Shown: positions 1-4,169 of the stretch, piece after piece
How positions within the stretch are numbered: the first letter of the stretch is position 1
Layout of the letters: every line of letters starts with the position of its first letter
Origin: a virus
Lineage: Duplodnaviria > Heunggongvirae > Uroviricota > Caudoviricetes
Strand: one strand, 5' to 3'
Length of the DNA: 4,169 nucleotides
Virus record (IMG/VR): IMGVR_UViG_2531839368_000014
Program-made: the position numbers and the translations under genes
The notes under the pieces: generated by a model
Told to the model about the DNA's origin: nothing
Database searches by the model: none
What the model saw: only the letters and a program-made list of their open reading frames with translations

Positions 1-33
1 GCTTCCATCGGAAACGATGATCTGGCAGCCTGA
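1..33 (+). CDS. transposase orfB, C-terminal fragment (5' partial, continues left of the window)
   Basis: Open frame from the window edge to TGA at 31..33, translating ASIGNDDLAA; it lies just inside the IS right inverted repeat. Too short to judge independently of the IS context. Confidence 0.5.
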   Translation, partial: ASIGNDDLAA

Positions 34-75
34 GTTCACAGATAAAACACTCTCCAGGAAACCCGGGGCGGTTCA
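1..75 (+). mobile_element. 3' end of an IS3-family insertion sequence (IS629/IS1203-like by recollection); right inverted repeat about 41..75 ending in ...GGTTCA
   Basis: Seen in sequence: the reverse complement of 41..75 (TGAACCGCCCCGGGTTTCCTGGAGAG...) matches 4096..4121 (TGAACCGCCCCGGAAATCCTGGAGAC...) at 22 of the first 26 positions, with TG...CA termini typical of IS3-family inverted repeats. Frame 1 of 1..33 reads ASIGNDDLAA-stop, consistent with a transposase C-terminus. The IS629-like assignment is from memory and not verified. Confidence 0.75.
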
Positions 76-439
76 CTTTCGCATGGTGCTTAAACCGTGG
101 CGCGAGAGACGCAGTCTTTCCCAGAATGCACTCAGCCACATGTGGTACAGCGAAATCAGTGAATACCTCATCAGCAGGGGGAAATCGTTCGCTACTTCAG
201 CATGGGTAAAAGATGCTCTCAAACACACATACCTCGGTTATGAAACCAAGGACCTGGTTGATGTCGTAACCGGCGAAATCACTACTATCCAGTCGTTACG
301 CCATACCTCCGATCTTGGTACCGGAGAGATGTATGTCTTCCTGTGTAAGGTTGAAGCCTGGGCGATGAATATTGGCTGCCACCTGACTATTCCACAGAGC
401 TGCGAGTTCCAGCTGCTGCGTGACAAGCAGGAGGCGTAA
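17..439 (+). CDS. NinB/YbcN-family phage protein, apparently 5'-disrupted; the first ~20 codons (17..75) are IS-derived and the first prophage-derived in-frame ATG is at 83
   Basis: The ORF runs 17..439 with stop TAA 437..439 overlapping the ninE ATG (TAATG). It sits immediately upstream of ninE, as ybcN/ninB does in DLP12-like and lambda-like nin regions. A motif RERRSLSQN resembles my recollection of lambda NinB (RNRSLDQN). The IS boundary at 75 falls inside the ORF. Family call is from synteny plus a remembered motif. Confidence 0.5.
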   Translation: MIWQPEFTDKTLSRKPGAVHFRMVLKPWRERRSLSQNALSHMWYSEISEYLISRGKSFATSAWVKDALKHTYLGYETKDLVDVVTGEITTIQSLRHTSDLGTGEMYVFLCKVEAWAMNIGCHLTIPQSCEFQLLRDKQEA

Positions 440-609
440 TGGCTACACCGCTTATTCGTGTCATGAACGGACACATCTACAAAGTACCAAATCGTCGTAA
501 GCGTAAACCTGAGCTGAAGCCATCCGAAATACCAACACTGCTCGGATATACCGCCAGCCTGGTTGATAAAAAATGGTTGCGACTGGCAGCAAGGAGGAAT
601 CATGGCTGA
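439..609 (+). CDS. ninE: NinE-family protein (56 aa)
   Basis: ATG 439 preceded by AGGAGG at 429..434; stop TGA 607..609. Translation [56 protein letters not shown]; length and the basic C-terminal WLR..ARR pattern fit NinE as I recall it. Missing from the ORF track only because it is short. Confidence 0.75.
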   Translation: MATPLIRVMNGHIYKVPNRRKRKPELKPSEIPTLLGYTASLVDKKWLRLAARRNHG

Positions 610-892
610 TTTGAGAAAAGCAGCGCGTAGTCGGGAATGCCAAGTAAGAATCCCTGGCGTATGTAATGGCAACCCTGAAACGTCTGTACTGGCACATATC
701 CGGCTGACTGGATTGTGCGGCACCGGTACCAAACCGCCAGACTTGATTGCCACCATTGCATGTTCTGCCTGCCACGACGAAATCGACCGCCGCACACATT
801 TTGTCGATGCTGCATATGCAAAAGAATGCGCGCTGGAAGGTATGGCGAGAACACAGGTTATCTGGCTGAAAGAGGGGGTTATTAAGGCGTGA
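602..892 (+). CDS. ybcO: YbcO-like DUF1364 protein (putative Cys-rich metal-binding nuclease, 96 aa)
   Basis: ATG 602 preceded by AAGGAGG at 591..597; overlaps the ninE stop by 8 nt. Translation from 602 ([23 protein letters not shown]...CSACHDEID...) matches my recollection of E. coli YbcO almost residue for residue. The track ORF starting at 563 is a 5' extension with no ribosome-binding site. Confidence 0.85.
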
Positions 893-1251
893 ATACCTAC
901 AGCATCACATTACCCTGGCCTCCGAGCAATAATCGCTACTACCGGCATAATCGCGGGCGCACGCACATCAGCGCAGAAGGGCAGGCATACCGTGATAACG
1001 TCGCCCGAATCATCAAAGGCTCCATGCTGGATATCGGCCTGGCTATGCCAGTGAAAATCCGTATTGAGTGCCACATGCCGGATCGCCGTCGCCGTGACCT
1101 GGATAATCTGCAAAAAGCCGCTTTTGACGCACTCACCAAAGCAGGTTTCTGGCTGGATGATGCTCAGGTCGTTGATTACCGTGTTGTGAAGATGCCCGTT
1201 ACCAAAGGTGGGAAGCTGGAGCTGACCATCACCGAACTGGGGAATGAATGA
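889..1251 (+). CDS. rusA: RusA Holliday-junction resolvase (120 aa), GTG start
   Basis: Translation [26 protein letters not shown]...[19 protein letters not shown]...ELGNE is near-identical to E. coli RusA as I recall it. Start GTG 889..891 overlaps the ybcO stop (GTGA); G-rich stretch AGAGGGGG upstream at 871..878. Confidence 0.9.
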
Positions 1252-1388
1252 TGTTTGAGTCTTATATGGCAGAACGTCTTCGCCACCGCTGGATGCGCCT
1301 GCGCTTATATCGTTTTCCTGGTTCTGTTTTGACCGATTACCGGATACTGAAGAATTACGCCAAAACACTGAAAGGAGCTGCCGCATGA
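1248..1388 (+). CDS. ylcG: YlcG-like small protein (46 aa)
   Basis: Tandem ATG at 1248 and 1251 overlapping the rusA stop; stop TGA 1386..1388 overlaps the next ATG. Translation [46 protein letters not shown] resembles DLP12 YlcG and occupies the same slot between rusA and the Q-position gene. Start could be 1251. Confidence 0.65.
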
Positions 1389-2074
1389 ATACCCAATATT
1401 TACAGTATGTCCGCGAGCAACTCATTGTGGCTACCGCTGATTTGAGCGGAGCAACGAAAGGACAGCTTGAAGCCTGGCTGGAGCATGCACAATTTGATAC
1501 TGGTACATACAAACGAAAGAAGCCGCGCATTCTGGATGAGGTAACTGGCAGGATGATTACGCTGGATAATCCGCCGATTTCCGGTAAGCAGTCGTACGCA
1601 AAAGGTTCATCCATTGCACTGGTCAGCCAGGTTGAGTTCTCAACCTCGTCATGGCGCCGCGCGGTTCTGTCTCTCGAAGAACATCAGAAAGCGTGGTTGC
1701 TGTGGAGTTACAGCGAAAGTGTTCGCTGGGAACATCAGGTCACCATAACGCAGTGGGCATGGAGCGAGTTTAAGACTCTGTTGGGTACCAGGAAAATTGC
1801 AGGTAAGACACTGGAACGTTTGAAGAAGTTGATCTGGCTGGCGGCACAGGATGTGAAGAACGAGCTGGCAGGGCGTAAGACCTATGAATACCAGGAGCTG
1901 GCATCACTGGTGGGAGTGACATCAAAAAACTGGTCTGAGACATTTACTGAACGCTGGGTTGCAATGAAACACATTTTTCTACAGCTTGATAGCCAAGCTT
2001 TATTGCTTTTAACGAAAACACGTTCAAAACAAAAGACCACATTTTCACAGCAAGATATTGCAAAACTGGATTAA
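1385..2074 (+). CDS. putative late-gene antiterminator in the Q position (229 aa), not lambda-Q type
   Basis: Last gene of the nin-region chain, followed by a promoter/terminator intergenic region and then the lysis cassette, the canonical Q position. AGGAG at 1373..1377 seven nt upstream of ATG 1385. The protein has no cysteine, so it cannot carry a lambda-Q-like zinc ribbon; a helix-turn-helix-like stretch lies near residues 170-190 (YQELASLVGVTSKNWSETF). Assignment is positional. Confidence 0.5.
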   Translation: MNTQYLQYVREQLIVATADLSGATKGQLEAWLEHAQFDTGTYKRKKPRILDEVTGRMITLDNPPISGKQSYAKGSSIALVSQVEFSTSSWRRAVLSLEEHQKAWLLWSYSESVRWEHQVTITQWAWSEFKTLLGTRKIAGKTLERLKKLIWLAAQDVKNELAGRKTYEYQELASLVGVTSKNWSETFTERWVAMKHIFLQLDSQALLLLTKTRSKQKTTFSQQDIAKLD

Positions 2075-2086
2075 AAATCATATATT
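2058..2086 (+). promoter_or_regulatory. candidate sigma70 late promoter (PR'-like): TTGCAA - 17 nt - TATATT
   Basis: -35 TTGCAA at 2058..2063 and -10 TATATT at 2081..2086 with 17-nt spacing, straddling the Q stop codon (2072..2074), where PR' and the qut site lie in lambdoid phages. Hexamer match only; no expression data. Confidence 0.35.
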
Positions 2087-2142
2087 TTATGTAAATCTGA
2101 TATTTTGCCAATGTTGTACGCACTGGCAGTAATCCAAATTCA

Positions 2143-2176
2143 AGCCCGAGGTTTAAAGCCTTGGGCTTTTCTGTTT
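2143..2176 (+). terminator. intrinsic terminator-like hairpin (9-bp stem, 7-nt loop) followed by a T-rich tract
   Basis: AGCCCGAGG (2143..2151) pairs with CCTTGGGCT (2159..2167) with one G-U pair, loop TTTAAAG, then TTTTCTGTTTCT. Lies roughly 50 nt downstream of the candidate promoter. Confidence 0.45.
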
Positions 2177-2255
2177 CTGAACGGTGAGTAGCCTTCCAAC
2201 CTACCCCAGCCAGGGGGTCTTCAGCTGTTGAGTTGATATTGCTTAGCCCTCTGTT

Positions 2256-2278
2256 GCCAGCTACATGCTGGCTTTTTT
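2256..2278 (+). terminator. intrinsic terminator (tR'-like): GCCAGC-TACAT-GCTGGC followed by TTTTTT
   Basis: Perfect 6-bp GC-rich stem (2256..2261 with 2267..2272), 5-nt loop, then six T at 2273..2278. Located between the Q-position gene and the holin, as tR' is in lambda. Confidence 0.6.
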
Positions 2279-2395
2279 ATTCCAGGCTTGTGGGGAGCAT
2301 CAACTCCGTGCTTTGTCGTTAAATTACCCCGTGAGCCTGATTTCTGACATTTAACGTCCCGGCCTTTTGTCGGCGGCGAAACATTGGCTATTCAT

Positions 2396-2701
2396 ATGCA
2401 CGAAAAAGAGAGCCTTGCCGGAGCGTTCTGGCTCGTTTTGCTGATCATCGCAGGTTGGGGCGGTCTGGTCCGCTACCTGATAGATGTGAAGCAGAGTAAA
2501 GCAACGTGGAGTTGGATAAATGCTCTGGCTCAAATAGTGGTATCAGGATTCACCGGTGTTATTGGTGGCCTGATCAGCATCGAAAGTGGATTCAGTATTT
2601 ACATGATTCTCGCGACAGCGGGGATTAGTGGTGCGATGGGTTCGGTTGCACTGACGTACTTCTGGGAACGACTGACAGGGGTGAAAAATGCAAAATCTTA
2701 A
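2396..2701 (+). CDS. putative holin (three predicted transmembrane segments, about 101 aa), not lambda S-like
   Basis: Small hydrophobic protein with three hydrophobic stretches (AFWLVLLIIAGWGGLV; INALAQIVVSGFTGVIGGLISI; IYMILATAGISGAMGSVAL) and a short charged C-terminus, directly upstream of the endolysin and overlapping it by 14 nt. First ATG is at 2396; the track start at 2384 is an in-frame TTG four codons upstream. Sequence is unrelated to lambda S as I recall it. Confidence 0.6.
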   Translation: MHEKESLAGAFWLVLLIIAGWGGLVRYLIDVKQSKATWSWINALAQIVVSGFTGVIGGLISIESGFSIYMILATAGISGAMGSVALTYFWERLTGVKNAKS

Positions 2702-3164
2702 TCCTCAGCGTAAAGCCTTCCTCGATATGTTGGCGTGGTCAGAAGGAACGGATAACGGGCGACAACCGACACGTAACCACGGTTATGATGTTATTGTTGG
2801 CGGCGAACTGTTTACTGATTACTCCGATCACCCTCGCAAACTTGTCACGCTACACCCCAAACTCAAATCAACAGCCGCCGGACGTTATCAGCTTCTTTCA
2901 CGCTGGTGGGATGCTTACCGTAAACAGCTTGGTTTGAAAGACTTCTCCCCCAAAAGCCAGGACGCAGTGGCATTGCAGCAGATTAAAGAGCGTGGTGCTT
3001 TACCTATGATTGATCGCGGTGATATCCGTCAGGCAATCGACCGTTGCAGTAATATCTGGGCTTCACTGCCGGGCGCTGGTTATGGTCAGTTCGAGCATAA
3101 GGCTGACAGCCTGATTGCAAAATTCAAAGAAGCTGGCGGAACGGTCAGAGAGAGTGAGGTATGA
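2688..3164 (+). CDS. R: lambda R-type endolysin (lytic transglycosylase, 158 aa)
   Basis: Translation [20 protein letters not shown]...[20 protein letters not shown]...[27 protein letters not shown]... is near-identical to lambda R as I recall it, including Glu19 in the AWSEG motif. AGGGG at 2676..2680 upstream of ATG 2688; stop TGA overlaps the Rz ATG. Confidence 0.92.
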
Positions 3165-3622
3165 GCAGAATAACCGCGATTATCTCCGCTCTGCTCATCT
3201 GCATCATCGTCTGCCTGTCATGGGCTGTTAATCATTACCGTGATAACGCCATTACCTACAAAGCCCAGCGCGACAAAAATGCCAGAGAACTGAAGCTGGC
3301 GAACGTGGCAATTACTGACATGCAGATGCGTCAGCGTGATGTTGCTGCGCTCGATGCAAAATACACGAAGGAGTTAGCTGATGCGAAAGCTGAAAATGAT
3401 GCTCTGCATGATGATGTTGCCGCTGGTCGTCGTCGGTTGCACATCAAAGCAGTCTGTCAGTCAGTGCGTGAAGCCACCACCGCCTCCGGCGTGGATAATG
3501 CAGCCTCCCCCCGACTGGCAGACACCGCTGAACGGGATTATTTCACCCTCAGAGAGAGGCTGATCACTATGCAAAAACAACTGGAAGGAACCCAGAAGTA
3601 TATTAATGAGCAGTGCAGATAG
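3161..3622 (+). CDS. Rz: Rz spanin, inner-membrane subunit (i-spanin, 153 aa)
   Basis: N-terminal transmembrane segment ([20 protein letters not shown]) followed by a charged coiled-coil-like periplasmic domain; near-identical to lambda Rz from memory. ATGA overlap with R. Confidence 0.9.
3381..3563 (+). CDS. Rz1: Rz1 spanin, outer-membrane lipoprotein subunit (o-spanin, 60 aa), embedded in the +1 frame of Rz
   Basis: Lies wholly inside Rz in a different frame. AAGGAG at 3368..3373 seven nt upstream of ATG 3381. Signal peptide with lipobox (LVVVGC), then the proline-rich run [15 protein letters not shown]; matches lambda Rz1 from memory. Confidence 0.85.
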
Positions 3623-3647
3623 AGCTGCCCATATCGATGGGCAGCTC
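3622..3647. terminator. perfect 11-bp inverted repeat (GAGCTGCCCAT-ATCG-ATGGGCAGCTC) between convergent Rz and bor; candidate bidirectional terminator
   Basis: Perfect palindrome sitting exactly between the Rz stop (3620..3622) and the bor stop (3654..3656 on the minus strand). Flanking T/A tracts are weak, so terminator function is an inference. Confidence 0.4.
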
Positions 3648-3653
3648 ATGCAA

Positions 3654-3947
3654 TTATTGTGAGCAATACACACGCGCTTCCAGCGGAGTATAAATGCCTA
3701 AAGTAATAAAACCGAGCAATCCATTTACGAATGTTTGCTGGGTTTCTGTTTTAACAACATTTTCTGCGCCGCCACAAATTTTAGCTGCATCGACAGTTTT
3801 CTTCTGCCCAATTCCAGAGACGAAGAAATGGTGGGTGATGGTTTCCTTTGGTGTTACTGCTGCCGGTTTGTTTTGAACAGTAAACGTCTGTTGGGCACAT
3901 CCTGTAATAAGCAGGGCCAGCGCAGTAGCGAGTAGCATTTTTTTCAT
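3654..3947 (-). CDS. bor: Bor outer-membrane lipoprotein (lysogenic-conversion, serum-resistance family, 97 aa)
   Basis: Minus-strand ORF translating MKKMLLATALALLITGCAQQTFTVQNKPAA...; lipobox LITGC; near-identical to lambda Bor from memory; convergent with Rz as in lambda. Confidence 0.9.
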   Translation of the reverse strand: MKKMLLATALALLITGCAQQTFTVQNKPAAVTPKETITHHFFVSGIGQKKTVDAAKICGGAENVVKTETQQTFVNGLLGFITLGIYTPLEARVYCSQ

Positions 3948-4095
3948 GGTGTTATTCCCGATGCTTTTTAAAGTTCGCAGAATCGTATGTGTAGAAAATT
4001 AAACAAACCCTAAACAATGAGTTGAAATCTCATATTGTTAATATTTATTAATGTATGTCAGATGCGAAGGATCGTCACTGTATTCCCGGATTAAC

Positions 4096-4169
4096 TGAAC
4101 CGCCCCGGAAATCCTGGAGACTAAACTCCCTGAGAAAGAGGTAAACAGGATGACTAAAAATACTCGTTT
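4096..4169 (+). mobile_element. 5' end of an IS3-family insertion sequence (IS629/IS1203-like by recollection); left inverted repeat about 4096..4121, element continues right of the window
   Basis: TGAACCGCCCCGGAAATCCTGGAGAC at 4096 is the inverted counterpart of the repeat at 41..75. It is followed by AGAGG at 4137..4141 and ATG 4150 opening MTKNTR..., which I recall as the N-terminus of IS629-type orfA. Confidence 0.75.
4150..4169 (+). CDS. transposase orfA, N-terminal fragment (3' partial)
   Basis: ATG 4150 with a ribosome-binding site 8 nt upstream; open to the window edge (MTKNTRF...). Only 6-7 codons are visible. Confidence 0.5.

Follow-up and report, generated by a model that had tools for sequence, protein, structure and literature searches.

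Sequence context of a prophage rusA gene downstream of an IS629 end in Escherichia coli O157:H7

The DNA analysed here, referred to below as the window, is a stretch of 4,169 nt that is identical over its whole length to an entire draft contig (JH694520.1, assembly GCA_000267285.2), both ends of which fall inside IS629/IS1203; the breaking of a draft contig in a repeat accounts for the odd length of the window. The DNA between the two IS ends (76–4095) is a 100% match to E. coli O157:H7 chromosomes (Sp8-type prophage DNA), and the matching region of the Sakai annotation is described as 'prophage Sp8; lambda-like phage'. Judged from these matches, the window is the nin-Q-lysis-bor segment of Sp8, a defective lambdoid prophage of E. 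coli O157:H7. Its genes and signals are listed in Table 1. The annotation of Sp8 runs from int and xis through truncated O, P, ren and emrE to ybcK and includes no immunity genes (comparison loci L001, 4451–6636, and L008, 915–3136). This defective layout, including the lack of annotated immunity genes, matches that of DLP12 in E. coli K-12, and Sp8 is integrated beside icd, not argU.

Table 1. Genes, signals and IS ends of the 4,169 nt window.
Feature	Position (nt)	Strand	Evidence or remark
IS629/IS1203 (IS3 family) right end: 3′ end of orfB (stop TGA, 31–33) and right inverted repeat ending ...GGGGCGGTTCA at 75	1–75	+	Comparison with L001
Chimeric ORF, ATG within the IS end, frame continuing into truncated ybcN	17–439 (native part 76–439)	+	ORF list; intact ybcN in L001 and K-12
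ninE	439–609	+	Start overlaps ybcN stop (TAATG)
ybcO (DUF1364, putative nuclease)	602–892	+	Pfam YbcO, 140.6 bits; stop TGA (890–892) overlaps rusA start
Shine-Dalgarno-like AGAGGGGGUU	871–880	+	5′ of the rusA GTG; identical in K-12
rusA, Holliday junction resolvase, 120 aa, GTG start	889–1251	+	Pfam RusA; alignment to PDB 1Q8R; RefSeq WP_001099695.1
ylcG	1248–1388	+	ORF list, annotation; ATGA overlap with rusA stop
Late antiterminator Q	1385–2074	+	Pfam Phage_antiter_Q, 316 bits; ATGA overlap with ylcG stop
PR′-like promoter, TTGCAA-17-TATATT	2058–2086	+	Consensus scan
Strong terminator hairpin, 12 bp stem	2142–2168	+	Consensus scan
Second terminator, downstream of Q	2256–2272		
Holin	2396–2701	+	Pfam match
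Endolysin	2688–3164	+	ORF list, annotation
Rz with embedded Rz1 (3381–3563)	3161–3622	+	Pfam match for Rz
bor	3654–3947	−	Pfam match for Bor
Second IS629 copy, left end (first 74 nt)	4096–4169	+	Identical to the IS start in L001; same flank, ...ggattaac

RusA, a small endonuclease, is a dimer and resolves Holliday junctions. The predicted product of the window gene scores 77.4 bits on the RusA profile (PF05866; cutoff 22.8), with residues 9–114 aligned to profile positions 1–123 of 124. Its alignment with the K-12 protein of structure 1Q8R is full-length (1–120 to 1–120), with 115/120 residues identical, and the stretch from residue 46 to 108 is unchanged, including D70, D72, K76 and D91; the D70N variant of RusA is inactive (PMC1636454). 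By these comparisons the gene is an ordinary prophage rusA, the counterpart of rusA in DLP12. The first-pass annotation had already named the gene correctly and had placed its GTG start (889–891) over the ybcO stop as GTGA, with exact coordinates.

The genes around rusA are tightly packed. Start and stop codons overlap at every junction from ybcN to Q (437–441, 602–609, 889–892, 1248–1251 and 1385–1388), and the reading frames are continuous from the ATG at nt 17, inside the IS, through Q. Small, overlapping, colinear genes with Q in last place, followed by a PR′-like site, a terminator and lysis genes, constitute the arrangement of a lambdoid nin-region operon, and the holin-endolysin-Rz/Rz1 lysis cassette (2396–3622) is intact. 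The first gene of the chain had been called ninB; it belongs to the YbcN family and is cut by the IS at about codon 31. Comparison with intact ybcN in L001 and K-12 shows that approximately the first 31 codons are absent from the window, and what is left gives only a sub-threshold match to the Pfam NinB profile. The chimeric frame that results is called as a 140 aa gene on the source contig. Its ATG precedes the orfB stop by 14 nt and has a weak predicted Shine-Dalgarno (SD) duplex (−3.5 kcal/mol).

The PR′-like promoter and the hairpin that follows Q (2058–2168) are presumed to be the target of Q ahead of the lysis genes. An Rfam search of the window gave nothing beyond a sub-threshold match to isrJ at 2090–2169 (30.4 bits, gathering threshold 37, E 0.008), which is downstream of Q, unrelated to rusA, and probably represents a short PR′ leader RNA. 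In intact Sp8, the spacer between ybcK and ybcN (L001 8729–8790) carries a promoter-like sequence (TTGATT-17-CATAAT) and then a GC-rich hairpin with a 12 bp stem, for which a terminator-like score was obtained only on the minus strand. This site may be the native promoter of the ybcN–rusA chain, or a tR2-like signal for it. The IS of the window stands between a spacer site of this type and rusA.

It had been proposed that translation of rusA is intrinsically weak, an idea at odds with the predicted initiation region. The duplex between the rusA SD sequence and the 3′ end of 16S rRNA (−11.8 kcal/mol, with a spacing of 8 nt to the GTG) is the strongest predicted in the window, which argues against weak ribosome binding. 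Inhibitory RNA structure is likewise not supported, as the predicted fold of nt 845–925 around the start is no better than that of shuffled sequences (z = +0.5). The initiation region is also the same as that of K-12, where a supply of transcription yields protein. A GTG start by itself implies a modest reduction. Translational coupling of rusA to ybcO, suggested by the overlap, is plausible but not required. The overlap is not peculiar to rusA, since all junctions from ybcN to Q overlap and rusA of DLP12 has the same GTG within an identical 40 nt context. The GTG/GTGA arrangement is native and conserved, and does not derive from the IS.

The IS sequence at the left end of the window (1–75) is 100% identical to the final 75 nt of a complete, 1310 bp copy of IS629/IS1203 in L001, in which the annotated transposase CDS stops 42 nt short of the IS end. 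The terminal inverted repeats of IS629 begin TGAACCGCCCCGG; the first 13 nt of both repeats match, as do nine more past a 3 nt gap. With orfB on the + strand and the IS ending at nt 75, the element has the same orientation as rusA and ends 813 nt upstream of its start, in agreement with the earlier description of an IS end about 800 bp upstream. Only 75 nt of the IS are on the contig, and from this assembly break we infer that a complete IS629 lies upstream of rusA. The second copy, at the right end of the window, occupies the bor–ybcV site, a position common to many O157 genomes. The rusA-Q-lysis-bor segment (76–4095) is flanked by the two copies in direct orientation (1–75 and 4096–4169), a composite-transposon-like layout that is a ready substrate for recombinational deletion between the copies.

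Insertions of IS629 in this part of Sp8 were surveyed in 5,426 complete E. coli genomes, of which 817 carry the region, with two queries in which ybcN–Q sequence was joined either to the right end of the IS or to its left end, reverse-complemented; insertions were counted from ybcK to rusA. Seven independent insertions were found within about 3.5 kb among the 817 genomes, in both orientations. Those oriented as rusA lie in ybcK (six genomes), in the ybcK–ybcN spacer (strain 1613) and at about codon 117 of ybcN (FDAARGOS_293). The opposite orientation is seen in CEC96047 (ybcK), AR-0428 (immediately 5′ of ybcN), 3-5-1 (ninE) and 7.1_Anguil (within the 3′ end of rusA). When the window is included, four insertions are oriented with rusA and four against it; for insertions upstream of rusA only, the tally is four against three. 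The lack of an orientation bias, together with the strain that carries IS629 in rusA, gives no sign of selection for activation. The 7.1_Anguil insertion truncates the 3′ end of rusA, indicating that rusA is dispensable in Sp8. An equal tally is expected of neutral IS629 scatter. Such scatter in Sp8 fits the distribution of the element in four sequenced O157:H7 strains, in which prophages or prophage-like elements hold 62% of the copies (PMC3271280). The IS629 at 1–75 is one of many strain-specific insertions in O157 prophages, a routine polymorphism.

None of the 5,426 complete E. coli genomes searched has the particular junction seen in the window, between the IS right end and about codon 31 of ybcN. 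The only matches were two draft assemblies, the source (GCA_000267285.2) and its sibling GCA_000267265.2 (JH694143.1, with N gaps). As the second draft assembly also has the junction and none of the complete genomes do, it is real and rare. Its simplest origin is a fresh IS629 insertion in a 28RC1-type background, because the window carries the bor–ybcV copy of IS629, and genomes with same-orientation copies upstream of rusA lack that copy. A less likely origin is a deletion adjoining the right end of an earlier upstream IS629, for example one in ybcK or in the ybcK–ybcN spacer, which would have brought the IS nearer to rusA. The IS-excision enhancer has been described as promoting deletions beside an intact IS629 (PMC9330008), and complete genomes with a same-orientation IS629 in ybcK or in the spacer offer a possible parent state. 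Because the contig breaks off within the IS, the left flank of the element and any target-site duplication lie outside view, which is also compatible with such a deletion. However, the genomes with those upstream copies are without the bor–ybcV IS629 that the window carries, and the other insertions examined show ordinary 3 bp duplications. An origin by adjacent deletion would be compatible with either of the explanations of rusA expression considered below.

Transcription of the nin genes in a functional lambdoid phage starts at the early-right promoter. Sp8 has no annotated immunity genes, a truncated replication gene coming immediately after int and xis, and its rusA is therefore expected to be quiescent, as in K-12. 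The gene keeps its place in the native, tight and overlapping chain ybcN-ninE-ybcO-rusA-ylcG-Q, and the IS629 at 1–75, in truncating ybcN, cuts the rusA chain off from anything upstream. The effect of the IS on rusA would most likely be nil, or at most faint read-through of a weak transposase transcript. Very probably, then, rusA in this strain is quiescent or unchanged in expression, and IS629 is irrelevant to it or mildly polar.

The alternative is that transcription leaving the right end of IS629, either from an outward promoter or by read-through from the transposase genes, runs through truncated ybcN, ninE and ybcO and switches on rusA. The precedent named in the first-pass annotation is documented, as two papers state that rusA of DLP12, normally quiescent, is expressed after insertion of IS2 or IS10 upstream activates transcription, and that ruv defects are thereby suppressed (PMC1636454, PMC10956419). 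Outward promoters can occur in IS3-family elements, and a strong one, P3R, is cited for the related element IS3 (PMC8860574). Several features of the window suit a similar event. IS629 points toward rusA from 813 nt away, and the rusA SD sequence is strong. A terminator between nt 75 and 889 would stop read-through of this kind, as had been pointed out, and no terminator-like site was found on the + strand in 76–889. An IS upstream, oriented into rusA with no terminator intervening, is the configuration of a rus-1/rus-2-type allele. Start and stop overlaps are unbroken from the ATG at nt 17 to Q, and if ribosomes use that chain, the continuous frames would lessen Rho-dependent polarity.

Such activation is nevertheless unlikely. 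Consensus scans gave no promoter-like site on the + strand in 1–889 or in full-length IS629, and a sigma-70 position-weight scan of the + strand of IS629 and of window nt 76–1300 gave a best score of 8.0, compared with a median maximum of 9.6 for shuffled sequences; on the same scale lacUV5 scores 12.9 and lambda PR 12.7. Nothing above shuffles was found in either type of scan for an outward promoter within IS629 or a hybrid promoter at the junction. The IS-supplied promoter of a rus-1/rus-2-type allele is thus not seen at the sequence level, at a sensitivity that is limited, as the scoring also misses the transposase promoter of IS629 itself. A literature search found no report of an outward promoter in, or of gene activation by, IS629/IS1203, and found no expression data for the Sakai locus tags. 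The survey also argues against activation, as insertions upstream of rusA are without orientation bias and one strain has IS629 inside the gene. The earlier suggestion of outward transcription from the IS is therefore unsupported, with no site reaching the shuffle median, no published promoter found, and insertions equal in both orientations, one of them disrupting rusA.

Two further considerations weigh against activation. The orfB product is annotated as made only via a programmed frameshift, so that ribosomes would leave most of the transposase transcript uncovered and accessible to Rho. In addition, a transcript that entered rusA would also express Q, which would act on the PR′-like promoter and terminator that stand before the intact lysis cassette. 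Strong activation should then be harmful or costly, because Q, and thereby the lysis genes, would be expressed too. In a specific form of activation, IS629 in ybcN would act as a mobile promoter, and ribosomes re-initiating at the ATG at nt 17 and passing along the overlapping chain would keep the transposase read-through translated, giving low, constitutive levels of RusA and Q from an otherwise silent prophage. This form is improbable; if real, it would be the counterpart of rus-1 and rus-2 arising naturally in O157:H7, via an IS that is not known to activate genes.

As it stands, with rusA very probably quiescent or unchanged, the locus is a known gene beside a routine IS629 polymorphism, and matters little. 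The rusA gene, its GTG start, its overlap with ybcO, the activation of the K-12 gene by an upstream IS, and the scatter of IS629 in O157 prophages are all already known. If IS629 were to drive rusA, it would join the IS elements that awaken cryptic prophage genes, and the strain would gain a second Holliday junction resolvase, possibly with leaky expression of Q and the lysis genes; even so, this would be a modest, strain-specific effect and not a new principle.

Among known systems, the IS629/IS1203 polymorphisms of O157:H7 involve the same 1310 bp, IS3-family element, with identical ends, the same preference for prophages and the same variability between strains. The window junction at about codon 31 of ybcN differs from those known polymorphisms in being found in none of the 5,426 complete genomes. 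The rus-1 (IS2) and rus-2 (IS10) alleles likewise have an IS upstream of a quiescent prophage rusA. They differ in that the element in the window is IS629, for which no outward promoter was found in sequence or literature, and in that rus-1 and rus-2 were selected in ruv mutants, whereas there is no sign of such selection for the IS629 of the window.

The closest counterpart is rusA of K-12 DLP12 (b0550; structures 1Q8R, 2H8C and 2H8E). Nucleotides 76–1378 of the window show 95.8% identity to DLP12, and the gene order, ybcN-ninE-ybcO-rusA-ylcG, is the same in both. The GTG start, the 4 nt GTGA overlap and the 40 nt initiation region are also shared. The K-12 protein has the same acidic catalytic residues, and differs from that of the window by five conservative changes (V26I, N44G, A45S, R109K and M117L). 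The two prophages occupy different sites, Sp8 at icd and DLP12 at argU. The window also departs from DLP12 on either side of this gene group, with ybcL and ybcM absent upstream, and a different, longer Q that directly overlaps ylcG.
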